A stretch of 31,333 bases of DNA from a virus. Both the position numbers and the translations under genes were made by a program. Below, one piece after another: positions 9,504 to 24,236 of this stretch (position 1 is its first letter; each line of letters starts with the position of its first letter). Below the pieces are notes generated by a model that made no database searches, was not told the origin of the DNA, and saw nothing but the letters and a program-made list of their open reading frames with translations. Where the stretch lies: the IMG/VR virus record IMGVR_UViG_3300047550_007048; one strand, written 5' to 3'.

Positions 9504-9593
9504 TGGCGGAAGGTAACAGAATCGAACTGTCAGCCTTGTTTAGGGGCTGGGACGGTTTTCAAGACCGTGTCCCCACCTTGGAGCCTACCTTCC
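9504..9593 (-). tRNA. tRNA-Ser(TGA), class II, CCA encoded
   Basis: Acceptor GGAAGGT/ACCTTCC, discriminator G. Anticodon arm ACGGT-CTTGAAA-ACCGT. Variable-arm hairpin CAGCC/GGCTG. T-arm CAG-TTCGATT-CTG. Confidence 0.75.
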
Positions 9594-10725: not shown

Positions 10726-10800
10726 TGACCCAACCGGCACGAATCGAACATGCGATCTCCCCCTGGACGGGGTTGCTTTACCATTAAGCTACGGTGGCGG
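10726..10800 (-). pseudogene. degenerate tRNA-like sequence: good D-arm TAGCTTAATGGTAAAGCA, T-arm GCATG-TTCGATT-CGTGC, CCA-like anticodon loop; no CCA end and a mismatched acceptor
   Basis: Hand folding only. Confidence 0.3.
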
Positions 10801-12334: not shown

Positions 12335-12416
12335 TGGTGCTACGGGAGGGACTCGAACCCCCGGTGTTGTGTGCCTGCTTACAAGGCAGGTGCTGTCGCC
12401 GCTGAGCCACCGTAGC
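12335..12416 (-). tRNA. tRNA-Thr(TGT) with unusually long (11 nt) variable region, CCA encoded
   Basis: Acceptor GCTACGG/CCGTAGC. Anticodon arm CCTGC-CTTGTAA-GCAGG. T-arm GGGGG-TTCGAGT-CCCTC. Confidence 0.6.
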
Positions 12417-13822: not shown

Positions 13823-13964
<142 letters not shown>

Positions 13965-17680: not shown

Positions 17681-17757
17681 TGGAGCGGGTAGGGAGAGTC
17701 GAACTCCGCATTGTCAGCTTGGAAGGCTGCTGGACGCCCCTTGTCCTATCTACCCGC
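17681..17757 (-). tRNA. tRNA-Gly(TCC), CCA encoded
   Basis: Acceptor GCGGGTA/TACCCGC. D-stem GGAC/GTCC. Anticodon loop CTTCCAA. T-arm GGAG-TTCGACT-CTCC. Confidence 0.65.
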
Positions 17758-17770
17758 ATAACACTTAACA

Positions 17771-18082
17771 CTATTTATGTCTAAGTATATACTGCATCTT
17801 AAACGCATGGTCAAGAACGTTTTTGTTTATTCCATGTTTAACGTATATGTCCGTCCGAGGAACCCCAGAATCTAAGTCCTGTTGTATGGATTTCCAATCC
17901 CGTTCTGGACGAGAACGTTTACCGGTTTCGTAAGCTTTCTTAAGAGATTCAGAAATCCTTGACCGTGTTTTTTCCGAAGGAGATTCTGGTTTATGTGATC
18001 TAGCAACGGCCATGATTTCTTGCTTTCTTTTGAGCTCTTCGGCAGAAAACTCTGCAGAAATATTTTGAACTCTTCGCATCAT
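17771..18082 (-). CDS. NUMOD / HTH DNA-binding-domain-only paralog of the GIY-YIG endonuclease C-terminus (103 aa; nuclease domain absent, a homing-endonuclease remnant or free-standing DNA-binding protein)
   Basis: PERDWKSIQQDLDSGVPRTDIYVKHGINKNVLDHAFKMQY aligns with PARDWNGIQLDIDAGMKKRDILTKYGIDRHVFDNGLKRGY of the 22831..23694 GIY-YIG protein. Low GC. Lies 14 nt from tRNA-Gly. Confidence 0.6.
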   Translation of the reverse strand: MMRRVQNISAEFSAEELKRKQEIMAVARSHKPESPSEKTRSRISESLKKAYETGKRSRPERDWKSIQQDLDSGVPRTDIYVKHGINKNVLDHAFKMQYILRHK

Positions 18083-18232
18083 TGCCGCTCTAATTTTTTC
18101 TCGATGTTCCGGGGTCTTTGGCGTTCCTTTTAGCCTCTTTCGGCAGTTGCAAGACGCTGATAAAATCCGTCAATTATCATCTATCATACCGTTGATAGTC
18201 GGCGACATTGATCATGTTAAACAACAGGTGGC

Positions 18233-18310
18233 GCTCTCGGCAGGAGTCGAACCCGCATGTGTCCATTAGCTTTCTCCACGTTCGAAGCGTGGCGGCATAC
18301 GAGAGCAATA
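18233..18310 (-). pseudogene. aberrant tRNA-like gene: acceptor GCTCTCG/CGAGAGC and T-arm intact, discriminator G plus CCA, but an anticodon-like hairpin (CCACG-CTTCGAA-CGTGG, TCG) lies where the D-arm should be
   Basis: Shares its acceptor with tRNA-Arg(CCT) at 19285. Arms appear permuted. Confidence 0.3.
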
Positions 18311-19366: not shown

Positions 19367-19441
19367 TGGTTGGCCCACCCGGTTCTGCCCCGAGGTCTTC
19401 CGGTTATCAACCGGGCGCTCTCCTAATTGAGCTATGAGCCA
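19367..19441 (-). tRNA. tRNA-Ile(GAT)-like with non-canonical T-loop GGCAGAA
   Basis: Acceptor TGGCTCA/TGGGCCA. D-arm GCTCAATTAGGAGAGC. Anticodon loop TTGATAA. CCA encoded. Confidence 0.5.
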
Positions 19442-20227: not shown

Positions 20228-20304
20228 TGGTGCCTGCGAGTGGATTCGAACCACCAACATCCGTGCGCTGAACACGGCGACTCTACCAGTTGGCCTACGC
20301 AGGC
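20228..20304 (-). tRNA. tRNA-Leu(CAG)-like, class-I sized (5-nt variable region), Leu-type D-region GGCCAACTGGTAGAGTC, A73, CCA encoded
   Basis: Acceptor GCCTGCG/CGCAGGC. Anticodon arm CCGTG-TTCAGCG-CACGG. T-arm GGTGG-TTCGAAT-CCACT. Confidence 0.5.
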
Positions 20305-20421: not shown

Positions 20422-20498
20422 TGGTGCATCCGGTGGGATTCGAACCCACACTGTGTGATCTCTCAAACCACTGACTCTACCAGTTGGCCTACGGATGC
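20422..20498 (-). tRNA. tRNA-Leu(GAG)-like, class-I sized, same Leu-type D-region, A73, CCA encoded
   Basis: Acceptor GCATCCG/CGGATGC perfect. Anticodon arm GTGGT-TTGAGAG-ATCAC. T-arm GTGGG-TTCGAAT-CCCAC. Confidence 0.55.
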
Positions 20499-20673: not shown

Positions 20674-20750
20674 TGGTACCCACGGTGGGATTCGAACCCA
20701 CAACCTCCGGTTTCTAAAACCGTTACCTCTACCAGTTGGGCTACGCGGGC
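20674..20750 (-). tRNA. tRNA-Leu(TAG)-like, class-I sized, Leu-type D-region GCCCAACTGGTAGAGGT, A73, CCA encoded
   Basis: Acceptor GCCCGCG/CGTGGGT (two G-U pairs). Anticodon loop TTTAGAA. T-arm GTGGG-TTCGAAT-CCCAC. Confidence 0.55.
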
Positions 20751-21866: not shown

Positions 21867-21943
21867 TGGCTCCCGGAGTAGGAATTGAACCTACCTGATG
21901 AACAGATTAACAGTCTGCTGGCACACCTTGCGCCCATCCGGGA
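21867..21943 (-). tRNA. tRNA-Asn(GTT) second copy, CCA encoded; its 5' part overlaps the 3' end of the DUF559 endonuclease ORF
   Basis: Acceptor TCCCGGA/TCCGGGA. Anticodon arm GCAGA-CTGTTAA-TCTGT (identical to the 14628 copy). T-arm GTAGG-TTCAATT-CCTAC. Confidence 0.7.
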
Positions 21944-22527
21944 TTAAAATCAATGAACTCTTTCATCTGTTGGATGGAACCTTTTGCATCACTGCATATT
22001 TCTTTCCATCGCATGCGTAATATAGCGTAGCCTTCTGCGGCTAGCAACCCGTCTTTTGATTTATCTCGTTCTTTTTGATCCAAGAATCGATCATGCTGTT
22101 CGCCATCTATTTCGATGACACGTTTCTTATGCAACCATGCAAAATCTAGACTGAATCGATAGAATGGATGTTCCCTGACGTAATTTTTGTCATCGAACTC
22201 ATTTAATATAACCTGCATAAACCATTTTTCTGGCCAACTAGGTTGGTTATTCCACCGGCTTCTACCAATGTTCCATGCTCGCCCATCTGCATGGGCTTTT
22301 TTCATACTATTCGATCTTTGTTTATTCTGCTCTTTGGTAGTAACACGAGGGTATTTTACTGATGCTAGTTTAGTCGCATCGGATTTTGATCTGGTAATAA
22401 TCTTACCGTCTCTCACAGCTTTTAGGAAAGTAATATTAGACATCTTGAAATGCTTGATAACCTCTCTACTGGAGTGGTTATCATCATAATATTTTTGCAC
22501 TTCTATCCAGTTTCTGGTACGACTCAT
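21907..22527 (-). CDS. DUF559 / Vsr-like (restriction-endonuclease-fold) endonuclease-domain protein, probable mobile endonuclease (about 206 aa from ATG 22527; GTG at 22542 is an alternative)
   Basis: FSLDFAWLHKKRVIEIDGEQHDRFLDQKERDKSKDGLLAAEGYAILRMRWKEI matches the DUF559 core (D...E.DG..H). Low GC. GCTAAATATTGAT motif directly upstream of the ATG. Confidence 0.6.
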   Translation of the reverse strand: MSRTRNWIEVQKYYDDNHSSREVIKHFKMSNITFLKAVRDGKIITRSKSDATKLASVKYPRVTTKEQNKQRSNSMKKAHADGRAWNIGRSRWNNQPSWPEKWFMQVILNEFDDKNYVREHPFYRFSLDFAWLHKKRVIEIDGEQHDRFLDQKERDKSKDGLLAAEGYAILRMRWKEICSDAKGSIQQMKEFIDFNPGWAQGVPADC

Positions 22528-22540
22528 ATCAATATTTAGC
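22528..22540 (-). promoter_or_regulatory. GCTAAATATTGAT motif abutting the ATG of the DUF559 gene
   Basis: Motif family member. Confidence 0.45.
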
Positions 22541-22703
22541 ACAGTCAGATGCGTTTACCAATTCCGCCATCCAGGAATAAAACCCAAAGTCTGTGCCCTT
22601 TTGCCTCATACACCGAAGGAGTCTTGGCTGGCCGGACCGCCCAGTTGTTGTTCTTGTTGCGTGTGTTATAGCATGCACCGCAGTTGGTGTCAATGCCTTT
22701 CTT

Positions 22704-22788
22704 TGGAGCAGGTCGGGGGAATCGAACCCCATTGCCGTTAAGCGCCAGGTTGGAAGCCTGGTGACGGGCCCACCCGTCTACGACCTGC
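22704..22788 (-). tRNA. non-canonical tRNA-Sec-like (8-bp acceptor / 4-bp T-stem, 6-bp D-stem with 4-nt D-loop, 14-nt variable arm) tRNA with Gly anticodon TCC; U73, CCA encoded
   Basis: Acceptor GCAGGTCG/CGACCTGC. D-arm GACGGG-TGGG-CCCGTC. Anticodon arm CCAGG-CTTCCAA-CCTGG. T-arm GGGG-TTCGATT-CCCC. Confidence 0.5.
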
Positions 22789-22795
22789 ATGTAAC

Positions 22796-22881
22796 TGGAG
22801 CGGGATGGGGGAATCGAACCCCGGTGCTGATTAGGCTCCAGACTGGCAATCTGGTGACAAGCCCACTTGTCCACACCCCGC
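22796..22881 (-). tRNA. second tRNA-Sec-like (8/4, 6-bp D-stem with 4-nt loop, 15-nt variable arm) tRNA with Gly anticodon GCC; U73, CCA encoded; 5' half overlapped by the GIY-YIG ORF 3' end
   Basis: Acceptor GCGGGGTG/CATCCCGC. D-arm GACAAG-TGGG-CTTGTC. Anticodon arm CCAGA-TTGCCAG-TCTGG. T-arm GGGG-TTCGATT-CCCC. Confidence 0.5.
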
Positions 22882-23694
22882 GCTATTCTTTGCGATATAG
22901 CCACGTTTTAGACCATTATCAAAAACATGCCGATCTATACCATATTTAGTCAATATGTCTCGTTTTTTCATGCCAGCATCGATATCGAGTTGGATACCGT
23001 TCCAGTCTCTGGCTGGTTTTTTACGTTTGCCAGAATCCCATGCTGATTTATTTGCAGAGGAGATTTTATCCCTGGTTTCATTTGAAACGATTTTTGGTTT
23101 CTTCATCCTAGCAGCATTCATTCGCCGTTGCCGTGAAGCCCGTTCCTCATCAGACAAGACCTTGTTTTTCAACGTTTCAGAAATCTTTGCCTTGTGCTCT
23201 GGCGAAAGCTTTCTGGAGGACAATGACTTCCTCATTTTATCCTTTACACCAGGGCGCGATGCCATTGGAGATTTTAGCAATCGCTGCCTTGATGCTTCTT
23301 TTATTTCCGGCGTGGCTTTTCCACGGACAGAATTGCTGATTCTTTCTTTTGTCTCGGTTGAATGTTTATAACCGGGTCTCTTGTTTTTACCAGTAGAATT
23401 GATGTAATCAAATCCACCTTTTCCACCAATCTTGATGTTATATGTGTTAGATCTTTGGACAAATGCCTCGTTGACAATCTCTGCTTCTTTCCGAAACATG
23501 TCATCAGACGTTTCAAAGTATTCTAGGATTGTTTTCGTGAATTTTTCAATTCCGTGTTTTTGGATAGCAGCATTTAGGACCTTACCGGATCCCATGTAAC
23601 CATCATTGATGTCATCGGTGATATGCACACCGATGTAAATCTTGCCATTTATGTGATTGGTGATCTGATATAGGTAGCGATAAATCTGCTTCAT
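22831..23694 (-). CDS. GIY-YIG homing endonuclease with NUMOD repeats and a C-terminal DNA-binding domain (287 aa)
   Basis: IYRYLYQITNHINGKIYIGV...GSGK is the GIY-YIG core. The C-terminus is homologous to the 17771..18082 ORF. Low GC. GTATAAATAGTCC motif abuts the ATG. Confidence 0.8.
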   Translation of the reverse strand: MKQIYRYLYQITNHINGKIYIGVHITDDINDGYMGSGKVLNAAIQKHGIEKFTKTILEYFETSDDMFRKEAEIVNEAFVQRSNTYNIKIGGKGGFDYINSTGKNKRPGYKHSTETKERISNSVRGKATPEIKEASRQRLLKSPMASRPGVKDKMRKSLSSRKLSPEHKAKISETLKNKVLSDEERASRQRRMNAARMKKPKIVSNETRDKISSANKSAWDSGKRKKPARDWNGIQLDIDAGMKKRDILTKYGIDRHVFDNGLKRGYIAKNSAGCGQVGLSPDCQSGA

Positions 23695-23708
23695 GGACTA
23701 TTTATACC
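23695..23708 (-). promoter_or_regulatory. GTATAAATAGTCC motif immediately 5' of the GIY-YIG ATG
   Basis: Motif family member. Confidence 0.5.
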
Positions 23709-23856
23709 AATAGGCTACCTCTACATCATACCCGCGTTATAGTCCTATTTATATTGAATACCCGTGCTCTATTGGTACTCGGCTGTAGGTGACTAACCCA
23801 CAATATCCTGGACGGTCGGGTCCAGGCCACCGAATGCTACCGTGTCACGGGGTCTT

Positions 23857-23941
23857 TGGTGGGGAAGGTAGGATTCGAACCTACTAGGCCGAAGCGGCAG
23901 ATTTACAGTCTGCTCCAACCCTCCAACGTTGGCGCTTCCCC
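23857..23941 (-). tRNA. tRNA-Tyr(GTA), class II, A73, CCA encoded
   Basis: Acceptor GGGGAAG/CTTCCCC. Anticodon arm GCAGA-CTGTAAA-TCTGC. T-arm GTAGG-TTCGAAT-CCTAC. Confidence 0.7.
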
Positions 23942-23954
23942 AAGCTCTTGAAAG

Positions 23955-24038
23955 TGGAGGTCCGGGTGGGACTCGAACCCACGGTGTTTGCATAGCTGAT
24001 TAAGAGTCAGCCCCCTTCGCCACTCGGGACACCGGACC
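23955..24038 (-). tRNA. class-II (Ser-like D-arm CCCGAGTGGCGAAGGG, 12-nt variable arm) tRNA carrying Lys anticodon CTT; U73, CCA encoded
   Basis: Acceptor GGTCCGG/CCGGACC perfect. Anticodon arm GCTGA-CTCTTAA-TCAGC perfect. T-arm GTGGG-TTCGAGT-CCCAC. Confidence 0.5.
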
Positions 24039-24155
24039 ATTTATGGCCTTAGAGACACGACGCCGGTGCTGCCCTAACCCTCTTGCGCTCAAGTCCCCAT
24101 CCTACGGCTGCATCTCGGAATGGGGCGGGCTATCTGCTCTCGTCGTGCTCTAACT

Positions 24156-24230
24156 TGGTGGACCGGGTGAGGATCGAACTCACCGATGCCGGATTAAGAG
24201 CCCAGCTGACCCACCAGGGTGCTCCGGTCC
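24156..24230 (-). tRNA. tRNA-Lys(CTT), class I, CCA encoded
   Basis: Acceptor GGACCGG/CCGGTCC. Anticodon arm CTGGG-CTCTTAA-TCCGG (two G-U pairs). T-arm GTGAG-TTCGATC-CTCAC. Confidence 0.6.
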
Positions 24231-24236
24231 AATTGG

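Follow-up and report, generated by a model that had tools for sequence, protein, structure and literature searches.

Tandem tRNA genes with glycine anticodons and an 8/4 cloverleaf in a phage tRNA array

A 31,333-nt phage sequence (IMG/VR record IMGVR_UViG_3300047550_007048; hereafter the window) carries on its minus strand two tandem tRNA genes, tRNA-Gly(GCC) (22796..22881, 86 nt) and, 7 nt downstream in the sense direction, tRNA-Gly(UCC) (22704..22788, 85 nt), both of which fold as 8/4 cloverleafs. We consider it likely that they are functional phage-encoded glycine tRNAs built on this non-canonical scaffold, which would be charged by GlyRS and decode GGN codons as Gly. The basis of this interpretation is the fold, the covariation, the identity nucleotides, the synteny with a canonical tRNA-Gly and the normal usage of GGN codons. 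The sequence of the locus is identical at every base in two independent sequencing runs. The window also encodes homing endonucleases and phage proteins, and its closest relatives in GenBank are jumbo phages.

The original prediction of a Sec- or allo-tRNA-type 8/4 body with the Gly anticodons UCC and GCC is borne out by unconstrained minimum free energy (MFE) folds. Further support comes from ARAGORN for both genes, from the Rfam tRNA model and covariation for the GCC gene, and from the Rfam tRNA-Sec model and homologs on two contigs (L041 and L029) for the UCC gene. In the MFE folds the acceptor stems comprise 8 bp, GCGGGGUG/CAUCCCGC with one G.U pair in the GCC gene (22881-22874 paired with 22807-22800) and GCAGGUCG/CGACCUGC in the UCC gene, followed in both by a 2-nt linker, a 6-bp D-stem with a UGGG loop (22871-22856 in the GCC gene), one unpaired A and a 5-bp anticodon stem. 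The anticodon loops, UUGCCAG and CUUCCAA, display GCC at 22847-22845 and UCC at 22754-22752, respectively. Both genes have the T-arm GGGG-UUCGAUU-CCCC, U73 and an encoded CCA, which confirms the 8-bp acceptors, 4-bp T-stems and U73 that had been proposed. The D-arms had been described as identical, which holds for their architecture but not for their sequence (GACAAG/CUUGUC versus GACGGG/CCCGUC, i.e. three compensatory pairs). Likewise, the variable regions are long as claimed (15 nt in the GCC gene, 14 nt in the UCC gene), but their pairing amounts to only 2-3 weak base pairs (dG 0 to -1.5 kcal/mol), which differ between the copies and take the form of a 3-bp hairpin in the UCC gene. A candidate sixth pair of the anticodon stem (alignment columns 28:46) is A.A or A.C in five of five long-arm members and is flagged as non-canonical by Rfam. 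For the UCC gene the MFE structure coincides with the centroid (-40.7 kcal/mol); shuffle z-scores of the folds are -1.8 for the GCC gene and -3.0 for the UCC gene.

The rival 7/5 fold forces a C.C or U.C mismatch at 49:65, which is visible in the ARAGORN drawing; we prefer the 8/4 arrangement, with an acceptor branch of 8 + 4 = 12 bp in which the same C.C or U.C occupies the place of a fifth T pair. The 49:65 pair is formed in 0/6 homologs, whereas G8:C is paired in 7/7. When seven distinct homologs are placed on the 8/4 model, 95% of the cells are paired and compensatory (double) changes occur in 14 of the 23 pairs, a level of covariation reached by none of 500 shuffles. The fifth and sixth D-stem pairs covary among homologs (AU/GC and GC/AU/GU); the eighth acceptor pair (G:C) shows no covariation of its own because it is invariant. 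In a covariance-model check, as had been proposed, the UCC gene scores 53.7 bits against the Rfam tRNA-Sec model RF01852 (gathering score 47), and the GCC gene, which has no match to that model, scores 39.9 bits against the general Rfam tRNA model.

Other large phage contigs, the longest of 543 kb, carry homologs whose stems are kept by compensatory changes over five contig lineages; among them are 8/4 tRNA-Gly(GCC) genes (in L033 and L036, both with an A3.C70 mismatch). Phage arrays also contain a wider set of tRNA-Gly(UCC) genes with long variable arms; the pattern used for this set gave 0 matches in 185,579 cellular (bacterial and archaeal) genomes. When IMG/VR was scanned for the scaffold with the anticodon left free, the matches had NCC anticodons only; the homolog searches relied on restrictive sequence patterns in which either an NCC anticodon or a Gly-type acceptor was obligatory, and thus cover the range of anticodons in part. 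Megablast of the locus against GenBank phages gave no match. The sole blastn match of the two genes was weak; it lies in Salmonella phage KKP_3831, in a T5-like tRNA-like sequence of the Leu(UAA) type, and was rejected as not a relevant homolog. Sequence-specific viral scans yielded chance matches only, without tRNAs.

Analysis of the identity elements suggests which synthetase would act on these tRNAs. The bacterial GlyRS set consists of G1:C72, C2:G71, U73, C35 and C36 (PMC9976931), and both genes carry all five, so that the predicted identity agrees with the anticodon; this comparison uses the bacterial (E. coli) set, and the GlyRS type of the host may differ. G1:C72, C2:G71 and U73 are present in 20 of 20 correctly parsed distinct long-variable-arm Gly tRNAs, these two included. 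Position 3:70 is G3:C70 in the GCC gene and A3:U70 in the UCC gene (G:C in 17, A:U in 2 and A.C in 1 of the 20); this element of the E. coli Gly set is not strictly kept, because of the A3:U70 here and the A3.C70 of L033/L036. GlyRS of T. thermophilus additionally reads the core nucleotides G10, U16 and C50-G64 (PMC9976931); GlyRS may recognize tRNAs with such a changed D-arm and T-stem less well. Other identities were rejected from the sequence, namely AlaRS (no G3.U70), CysRS (no GCA) and ThrRS (no G35 U36).

The original prediction raised a different outcome: SerRS would act on these tRNAs through their long variable arm and Sec-like body, and the resulting Ser at GGN codons would recode proteins or sabotage host translation. 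The genes do resemble allo-tRNAs in their 8/4 branch, long D-stem with a tetraloop, expanded (14-15-nt) variable region and, in the UCC gene, a score above the Rfam tRNA-Sec threshold, where allo-tRNAs likewise appear as "false positives". Moreover, allo-tRNAs are described with 35 anticodons, and in E. coli those bearing Leu anticodons led to the insertion of Ser and to toxicity; in the view of Mukai et al., a tRNA with a long variable arm is compatible with SerRS when nucleotide 73 is G or U (PMC5389517). Nevertheless, C2:G71 is listed as an antideterminant against E. coli SerRS (PMC9976931, Table 3), and both genes lack G2:C71 and G73, which belong to the serine identity set (PMC9976931). 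The variable helices are short and unconserved: they comprise 0-4 bp in long-arm Gly tRNAs, versus 3-7 bp (at least 4 in 11/12) in Ser tRNAs of the same arrays, which retain G2:C71. An in-array example of a serine-identity tRNA is provided by tRNA-Ser(UGA) (9504..9593, minus strand, 90 nt), with a G1-G2-A3 acceptor, G73, roughly 5 bp of variable-arm helix when the tRNA is folded as a whole, and an 8/4-compatible branch (A8:U65 or G49.U65). Expanded variable regions also occur in at least nine other class-I families of these arrays, which cannot all specify Ser. A separate idea links long variable arms to U34 anticodons; once Gly is left out, the counts do not support it (10/66 for U versus 6/56 for C and 6/56 for G). 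The genes further differ from allo-tRNAs in the absence of an extended anticodon stem and of a strong variable-arm helix, and in an acceptor identity that matches the anticodon, contrary to the Ser/Ala identity with an unrelated anticodon of allo-tRNAs. The latter are found in Clostridia, Proteobacteria and Acidobacteria, often in toxin-antitoxin or transposon contexts, and not, as here, in a complete phage tRNA array. Given the full glycine-charging signal set, the two genes are therefore most likely the phage's own odd-shaped Gly tRNAs and not a serine-inserting device, which, considering also the synteny, array composition and codon usage described below, appears improbable.

The array comprises 42 tRNAs called by ARAGORN and five further Rfam tRNA matches, all on one strand, and covers all 20 amino acids (His being recognized in addition to the ARAGORN set). 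It also contains other aberrant tRNA-like sequences. By a strict 8/4 test, the only positives among the 42 are the three Gly genes, which are also the only Gly tRNAs of the array; if they were removed, Gly would be the sole missing amino acid. The third one, tRNA-Gly(UCC) at 17681..17757 (minus strand, 77 nt), had been taken for a canonical class-I tRNA. Our folds contradict this view: the gene has an 8-bp acceptor (GCGGGUAG/CUACCCGC), a 4-bp T-stem and C.C at 49:65, combined with a variable loop that is short, a D-stem of 4 bp and an anticodon stem whose top pair is weak, and it scores only 32.1 bits with the Rfam tRNA model. A close analog is present in a viral contig of 234,659 bp (L058), found by a scan anchored on the T-arm and acceptor, as the sole useful member among the matches listed; the rest were ordinary tRNA-Gly genes and att sites. 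The depletion of GGA/GGC codons, proposed as a sign of recoding, was not observed, as GGN codons amount to 66 per 1000 in ten window ORFs; essential Gly motifs are included, e.g. the GxxGxxG Rossmann motif of a phage epimerase is encoded by GGA/GGT/GGC.

A related 452,799-bp phage contig from IMG/VR (L007), with an exonuclease 71% identical, shares the order Glu(CUC)-Lys(CUU)-Gly(GCC)-Asn(GUU)-Asp-Leu(UAG)-Val(UAC), and its tRNA-Gly(GCC) at the equivalent position is canonical (72 nt, 7/5). In L006, Gly(GCC) is 7/5 with a 14-nt variable arm. As originally observed, an ORF for a GIY-YIG/NUMOD3 homing endonuclease (22831..23694, minus strand, 287 aa; Pfam and PHROG matches) half-overlaps one of the tRNA genes: the first 51 nt of the GCC gene double as the final 51 nt of the ORF, TAA stop (22833-22831) included. 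A GIY-YIG fragment adjoins the canonical tRNA-Gly(GCC) of L004 and L007. Directly downstream of the UCC gene there is a DUF559 ORF (Vsr-like endonuclease fold; 21907..22542, minus strand; PF04480, E = 2.6e-12), called beside the tRNAs in independent assemblies, which is probably a second mobile endonuclease flanking the pair.

The intrusion of the GIY-YIG ORF into the GCC gene, the further aberrant tRNA-like sequences of the array and the A3.C70 mismatch in L033/L036 could be taken to indicate decaying copies without a role, resulting from structural drift or from damage by homing endonuclease insertion. This is very unlikely, as all four stems are fully paired, U33, A37, the G18G19-type D-loop Gs, the UUCGAUU T-loop, U73 and CCA are all intact, and compensatory changes preserve the stems in five contig lineages. 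Moreover, the overlap is itself conserved alongside an intact tRNA, since a full-length GIY-YIG homolog, 89% identical, likewise ends within the 8/4 tRNA-Gly(GCC) of L033 and L036.

With bacterial tRNA-Sec (RF01852) the two genes share the 8-bp acceptor, the 6-bp D-stem with a 4-nt loop and the long variable region. The reading that they are true selenocysteine tRNAs which carry sense anticodons and recode GGN to Sec is nevertheless of negligible probability, and we reject it. Their acceptor/T helix has 12 bp (8/4), as opposed to 13 bp (8/5) in bacterial tRNA-Sec; the G73, UCA anticodon, 6-bp anticodon stem and stable long variable arm of the latter are replaced here by U73, Gly anticodons, a 5-bp stem and a weak variable helix. 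The GCC gene does not match the Sec model, and GGN is found at ordinary Gly positions. Bacterial tRNA-Sec needs SelA and SelB; a search for SelB/SelA-like genes had been proposed, and a Pfam scan of 30 ORFs in the window found no SelA, SelB or SelD.

The closest parallel is offered by 8/4 phage tRNAs for Ser and His (Mukai 2017, NAR 45:2776, PMC5389517), which have the same 12-bp branch split 8/4, reside in phage tRNA clusters and have anticodons that agree with their identity elements, i.e. they are cognate isoacceptors and not suppressors; the 8/4-compatible tRNA-Ser(UGA) of the window adds to this similarity. The differences are that the amino acid here is Gly, for which 8/4 geometry is not mentioned in the main text of PMC5389517 or in a 2020 review, that two of the three Gly genes add the Sec-like 6-bp D-stem with tetraloop and the 14-15-nt variable region, and that tRNA-His of the window is an ordinary G-1 7/5 tRNA. 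A precedent for a Sec-shaped 8/4 tRNA directed to a non-SerRS synthetase by U73 and the anticodon is selC* tRNA-Cys (described in PMC5389517 and PMC7609411), which differs in its Cys identity, its A51a bulge, an often associated CysRS* paralog and its occurrence in anaerobic bacteria, not in phage arrays. With canonical bacterial tRNA-Gly the two genes have in common G1:C72, C2:G71, (G3:C70), U73, C35, C36, the encoded CCA, anticodon loops of the CUUCCAA and UUGCCAR types and a positional ortholog (in L007). They differ from it in the 8/4 instead of 7/5 branch, a paired G8 instead of U8, a D-stem of 6 bp with a 4-nt loop (versus 4 bp with 7-9 nt) and a variable region of 14-15 nt (versus 4-5 nt).

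Retention of the Gly identity set despite a strongly altered body, together with the presence of long-variable-arm tRNA-Gly in phage arrays and in none of the cellular genomes scanned with the same pattern, is also consistent with Gly-charged tRNAs that serve mainly outside the ribosome, either as glycyl donors (e.g. for Mom-like DNA hypermodification or Fem-like peptide bridges) or as decoys or resistant substitutes against toxins acting on Gly-tRNA-Gly. There are precedents: Gly-tRNA-Gly serves phage Mu Mom as co-substrate, it is specifically acetylated by TacT and similar GNAT toxins, and staphylococci possess dedicated non-ribosomal tRNA-Gly species (PMC13219725). We regard such a role as rather unlikely. 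A Pfam scan of 30 window ORFs detected no homolog of GNAT, Mom or Fem proteins, the anticodon loops have a standard form, and Mom accepted all E. coli tRNA-Gly isoacceptors (PMC13219725), so that no special tRNA is needed. The complete array has no Gly tRNAs apart from the 8/4 genes, which favors a role in decoding.

According to the preferred interpretation, as glycine-decoding tRNAs, both genes would be transcribed within the array of about 45 tRNA genes of a huge phage, with the 3' CCA already encoded, and a bacterial-type GlyRS of the host would charge them via G1:C72, C2:G71, U73, C35 and C36. EF-Tu and the ribosome could accept such tRNAs because the acceptor/T helix still has 12 bp (8+4, not 7+5). 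As described in PMC5389517 and PMC7609411, 8/4 and 9/3 tRNAs, allo-tRNAs among them, undergo processing and charging and function with the EF-Tu and ribosomes of E. coli; which amino acid they carry depends on identity elements. In phage protein synthesis the GCC tRNA would read GGC/GGU and the UCC tRNA GGA/GGG as glycine, and the pair together with the 8/4 gene at 17681-17757 would form the entire glycine-decoding set of the phage. Expression, charging by GlyRS and use by EF-Tu and the ribosome are predictions from the sequence.

Why the shape has diverged can be suggested only tentatively: the tRNAs may have evaded host factors directed at tRNA-Gly or at tRNA shape, the GIY-YIG homing endonuclease associated with this slot may have brought about rapid change, or drift may have been tolerated, the last being considered because many tRNA families of these arrays have expanded variable regions. 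A more specific and more speculative proposal is that 8/4 and long-variable-arm tRNA-Gly constitute a phage-specific class, whose body has been selected, beyond mere tolerance, to resist host effectors that act on tRNA-Gly or on the usual tRNA shape, or the GIY-YIG endonuclease. Compatibility with GlyRS, EF-Tu and the ribosome would then be retained, while glycine decoding or glycyl transfer would become insensitive to GNAT toxins that acetylate Gly-tRNA-Gly or to tRNA nucleases; alternatively, the remodeled gene would be immune to the linked homing endonuclease.

Our findings carry a warning for annotation, as covariance models either label such genes tRNA-Sec (the UCC gene, and also a 90-nt Lys(UUU) gene of L029) or overlook them (the genes of L033 and L041); a published survey of huge phages deduced selenoprotein coding from "tRNA-Sec" calls (PMC10747093). 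They extend to glycine the list of natural non-7/5 tRNAs, with 8/4 known before for Ser, His, Cys*, Sec and allo-tRNAs, and reveal class-II-like tRNA-Gly(UCC) genes as a wider set in phage arrays. In this phage every Gly decoder has switched architecture. If the shape is adaptive, the evolution of tRNA bodies under phage-host conflict could be tested on this case, and synthetic biology would gain natural 8/4 scaffolds that carry GlyRS identity; and if the body has indeed been selected, tRNA architecture, beyond the sequence of the anticodon loop, would be a battleground between phages and their hosts.

Genes A (tRNA-Gly(GCC), 22881..22796, minus strand, 86 nt) and B (tRNA-Gly(UCC), 22788..22704, minus strand, 85 nt) are separated by 7 nt, and the sequence of their locus is the same in two independent read sets. 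In the sense orientation gene A reads GCGGGGUG-UG-GACAAG-UGGG-CUUGUC-A-CCAGA-UUGCCAG-UCUGG-AGCCUAAUCAGCACC-GGGG-UUCGAUU-CCCC-CAUCCCGC-U-CCA, and gene B reads GCAGGUCG-UA-GACGGG-UGGG-CCCGUC-A-CCAGG-CUUCCAA-CCUGG-CGCUUAACGGCAAU-GGGG-UUCGAUU-CCCC-CGACCUGC-U-CCA. Unconstrained folding returned exactly the 8/4 cloverleaf (8-bp acceptor, 4-bp T-stem) for both (z = -1.8 for A and -3.0 for B); the 7/5 frame imposed by ARAGORN leaves G8 without a partner and requires a mismatch, C.C or U.C, at 49:65. Gene B scores 53.7 bits on the Rfam tRNA-Sec model and passes its gathering score of 47, and gene A obtains 39.9 bits on the general tRNA model, with deletions forced in the T-arm. On the strength of the folds and of the Rfam score of gene B, the Sec-like shape described in the original prediction is accurate save three details. 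The D-arms, reported as identical, have a common architecture but not a common sequence (GACAAG/CUUGUC vs GACGGG/CCCGUC); the variable arms are indeed long, but barely helical; and the supposedly canonical tRNA-Gly(UCC) at 17681-17757 (minus strand) has in fact GCGGGUAG/CUACCCGC, a 4-bp T-stem and C.C at 49:65.

Related sequences were sought with a pattern comprising the UGGN D-loop, 6-bp D-stem spacing, A26, NCC anticodon loop, long variable region, T-loop, 12 bp to U73, and CCA. In JGI metagenomes it matched 29 stretches, about 20 of which are real Gly tRNAs within tRNA arrays. Three distinct tRNAs on four loci combine the 8/4 shape with the 6-bp D-stem: a UCC tRNA on a 543,035-bp contig (L029, the same as IMG/VR L043; D-stem GAGCAA/UUGCUC), a GCC tRNA near-identical to gene A on contigs of 55,294 bp (L033) and 5,494 bp (L036), and a UCC tRNA on a 2,267-bp contig (L041), whose D-stem has one bulged U. 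An 8/4 Gly(UCC) with a short variable loop, resembling the third Gly gene of the window, was found on a 234,659-bp contig (L058). The tRNA array of this viral contig also contains a full-length tmRNA gene (4531-4883, Rfam 121.6 bits).

In the alignment of seven distinct sequences (A1), 95% of cells form a standard pair under the 8/4 model, and changes on both sides occur at 14 of the 23 pairs, including covariation in the extra D-stem pairs. None of 500 shuffles reached the observed pairing values, and sliding the 3' partners as a control lowers pairing to about 42-50%. The eighth acceptor pair is G:C in 7/7 sequences and, being invariant, has no covariation of its own, while the competing 49:65 pair forms in 0/6. 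A strict test (base 8 paired with base 65, 49:65 mismatched, 4-bp T-stem) was positive for 8 of the 360 ARAGORN tRNAs from the window and the loci compared with it, all eight being tRNA-Gly; most of these loci were chosen by the Gly pattern, so only the contrast within the window (Gly 3/3, others 0/39) is unbiased.

Seven of nine matches to the pattern in IMG/VR are real long-arm tRNA-Gly(UCC), some of them duplicating JGI contigs, and in many arrays (L017, L018, L020, L030, L035, L049) the long-arm UCC gene adjoins a canonical 73-75-nt GCC gene. Among 185,579 bacterial and archaeal species (one genome each) the same pattern found no long-variable-arm tRNA-Gly, only three chance matches; the absence from cells is suggestive only, because only genes with an encoded CCA, a particular T-loop and UGG D-loop spacing can match the pattern.

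The original prediction proposed that these tRNAs might insert serine at GGN codons. Bacterial glycine identity depends on U73, G1:C72, C2:G71, C35 and C36, whereas in bacterial tRNA-Ser the pairs G1:C72 and G2:C71 are conserved, and identity is read from G73 and the variable arm; for E. coli SerRS, C2:G71 is a documented antideterminant (Giegé and Eriani, PMC9976931). G1:C72, C2:G71 and U73 are present in genes A and B and in every one of the 20 distinct long-variable-arm Gly tRNAs that we collected and that parsed correctly; position 3:70 is G:C in 17 of the 20, A:U in two (including gene B) and A.C in one. In their variable regions there is either no structure or a helix of at most 4 bp (dG 0 to -4.9 kcal/mol). 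In the Ser tRNAs of these arrays the second acceptor pair is G2:C71 and the variable arm forms a helix of 3-7 bp (at least 4 bp in 11 of 12). In the window tRNA-Ser(UGA) begins its acceptor with GGA, has G73 and, when the whole tRNA is folded, shows a variable helix of about 5 bp. This tRNA-Ser(UGA) (9504-9593, minus strand) can itself be drawn as 8/4 (A8:U65, T-stem ACAG/CUGU) or as 7/5 with G49.U65, and is probably an example of the (8/4) tRNA-Ser that Mukai et al. have described from phages. In allo-tRNAs the inserted amino acid is set by identity elements rather than by the anticodon (PMC5389517; PMC7609411); in genes A and B both point to glycine.

Gene order and codon usage bear on the same question. 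The window and L007, a related array, share the order Glu(CUC), Lys(CUU), Gly(GCC), Asn(GUU), Asp, Leu(UAG), Val(UAC), and at the position of gene A L007 has a canonical 72-nt 7/5 tRNA-Gly(GCC). Another array (L006) encodes a 7/5 tRNA-Gly(GCC) with a 14-nt variable arm, GUC-GAAA-GAC, and on account of these two forms gene A stands at one extreme of a range of structures among orthologous glycine tRNAs. Glycine is the sole amino acid that the array would lose without its three 8/4 genes. The depletion of GGN codons looked for in support of recoding is absent from 10 window ORFs, where they amount to 66 per 1000 codons (GGC 27.7, GGT 16.9, GGA 12.3, GGG 9.2), and GGA/GGT/GGC encode the Rossmann motif GxxGxxG of an epimerase; serine at GGN codons would harm the phage itself.

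Expanded variable regions also occur in Asn, Cys, Glu, Ile, Lys, Pro, Thr, Trp and further tRNAs of the same arrays, and an expansion found across so many identities therefore cannot be a serine switch. An unstructured 11-12-nt insert of the AYACAA(A)CACC type is present in Thr(UGU) and Lys(CUU) of the window (12335-12416 and 23955-24038) and elsewhere in Gly(UCC) and one Pro(UGG) (L017, L027, L030, L045, L006), a distribution that suggests a recognition motif held in common or else the duplication of tRNA genes followed by changes of anticodon. Some tRNAs with this insert have a similar D-arm as well. An anticodon-free scan of IMG/VR, a narrow test since the scaffold had to include a Gly-type acceptor, returned L043 and ordinary tRNA-Gly genes or att fragments, all with NCC anticodons; this agrees with a Gly-specific family and not with an allo-tRNA-like anticodon lottery.

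The array comprises 42 ARAGORN genes, each with an encoded CCA, and five further Rfam matches; all lie on the minus strand and together they cover 20/20 amino acids. The Rfam additions include a normal G-1 tRNA-His(GUG) (26936-27008) and a tRNA-Ile(GAU) (19370-19441), both with an unusual T-loop, GGCAGAA in place of UUCRANY. The tRNA-Leu genes CAG, GAG and UAG (20228-20304, 20422-20498, 20674-20750; each 77 nt, A73) lack a long variable arm and are thus class-I-shaped, a mirror image of the long-arm Gly tRNAs; tRNA-Leu(CAG) of L007 is a normal 85-nt class-II form. A 138-nt class-II match to the Rfam tRNA model at 13827-13964 has a Ser-like GGA acceptor and G73, and its anticodon loop is interrupted by an insert of about 51 nt that holds a T-arm-like hairpin (GGAGUUCAACUCUCC). 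With the insert removed the anticodon could be GCU. The window ORFs use AGC more than any other Ser codon, and the ARAGORN and Rfam matches of the window include no other tRNA-Ser(GCU). A tRNA-like gene with a UCG anticodon (18232-18306, Rfam 35.4 bits) has good acceptor, anticodon and T arms, G73 and CCA, lacks a normal D-arm and has a 19-nt variable region. A degenerate tRNA-like sequence at 10729-10798 (Rfam 37 bits; acceptor poorly paired, no CCA), whose anticodon loop may read UCC, is probably a pseudogene. In related arrays a tRNA called Pyl(cta), with the amber-reading CUA anticodon, lies directly upstream of the Gly gene (L005 5404-5480, L006 11647-11722, L033, L036), a hint that some members of the lineage recode TAG; no such tRNA was detected in the window.

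Two homing-endonuclease-type ORFs are interspersed with the window tRNAs, one GIY-YIG/NUMOD3 (23694..22831) and one DUF559 (22542..21907), both on the minus strand. Other window genes encode a DNA-polymerase exonuclease subunit, sugar-modifying enzymes, a radical-SAM protein, SIR2, phosphatases and an MVP-shoulder protein. The last, an 834-aa ORF at 1-2505 (minus strand) extending past the window start, contains Major Vault Protein shoulder and repeat domains (PF11978, E = 8e-20; PF17795), unusual in a phage. Megablast of positions 22000-24500 (genes A and B with flanks) gave no matches among GenBank phages. The exonuclease shares 37% identity with its counterparts in PA5oct-like jumbo Pseudomonas phages and 56-71% with genes from IMG/VR contigs (up to 452,799 bp long) that carry syntenic tRNA arrays, and we infer that the window comes from a huge phage.

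For the reading of genes A and B as glycine tRNAs, the analysis shows the fold and its covariation, the identity nucleotides, the synteny and the codon usage. They would be co-transcribed with the array and processed, charged by the host GlyRS, delivered by EF-Tu, since 8+4 equals the canonical 12 bp, and would decode GGY and GGR as glycine, a course of events that we consider rather probable. Use by E. coli EF-Tu has been demonstrated for other 8/4 and 9/3 tRNAs (PMC5389517). Non-ribosomal glycyl donation, as an alternative role, has precedents in Mom and Fem (PMC13219725), but no partner enzyme was found among the window ORFs scanned. Candidate causes for the changed body of the glycine tRNAs are tolerated drift, divergence driven by a linked homing endonuclease, and escape from host effectors acting on tRNA-Gly or tRNA shape; GNAT toxins specific to Gly-tRNA-Gly are cited in PMC13219725, and PMC10264068, PMC11555353 and PMC13056530 describe tRNA-cleaving defences and phage tRNA counter-measures.

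As to the endonuclease, the GIY-YIG frame of the window (22831-23694) stops inside the tRNA-Gly(GCC) gene, as does the same ORF (89% identity over 287 aa) inside the 8/4 tRNA-Gly(GCC) of L033 (1136-1996) and L036 (523-1383), and a GIY-YIG fragment (17946-18236) adjoins the canonical tRNA-Gly(GCC) of L007. Across the lineage this endonuclease accompanies the tRNA-Gly(GCC) slot, and it may target the canonical allele. The arrangement is reminiscent of SegB in the tRNA cluster of T4.

The 8/4 form is already known from allo-tRNAs, selC* tRNA-Cys and minor tRNA-Sec species, and specifically in phage tRNA clusters from tRNA-Ser and tRNA-His (PMC5389517). We found no report of an 8/4 or class-II-like tRNA-Gly in the main text of that paper, a 2020 review or full-text literature searches. 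Genes A and B have neither the extended anticodon stem of allo-tRNAs nor their Ser/Ala identity with an unrelated anticodon, and they lack the defining features of tRNA-Sec. They do fit the cognate 8/4 phage tRNA, to which they add a Sec-like D-arm and variable region, and we therefore rate them as a variant of known 8/4 tRNAs, extended to a new amino acid, glycine. Rfam labels gene A and the L029 Gly gene as plain tRNA, misses the L033 and L041 Gly genes, and labels as tRNA-Sec both gene B and a 90-nt tRNA-Lys(UUU) that adjoins the 8/4 Gly gene of L029 (6456-6541, minus strand; 6-bp D-stem, GAAA-capped variable hairpin; 50.6 bits, above threshold), which is likely another source of false tRNA-Sec calls in huge phages. 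Because of these labels, the anticodon and geometry of the "selenocysteine tRNAs" reported in huge phages (PMC10747093) need checking.
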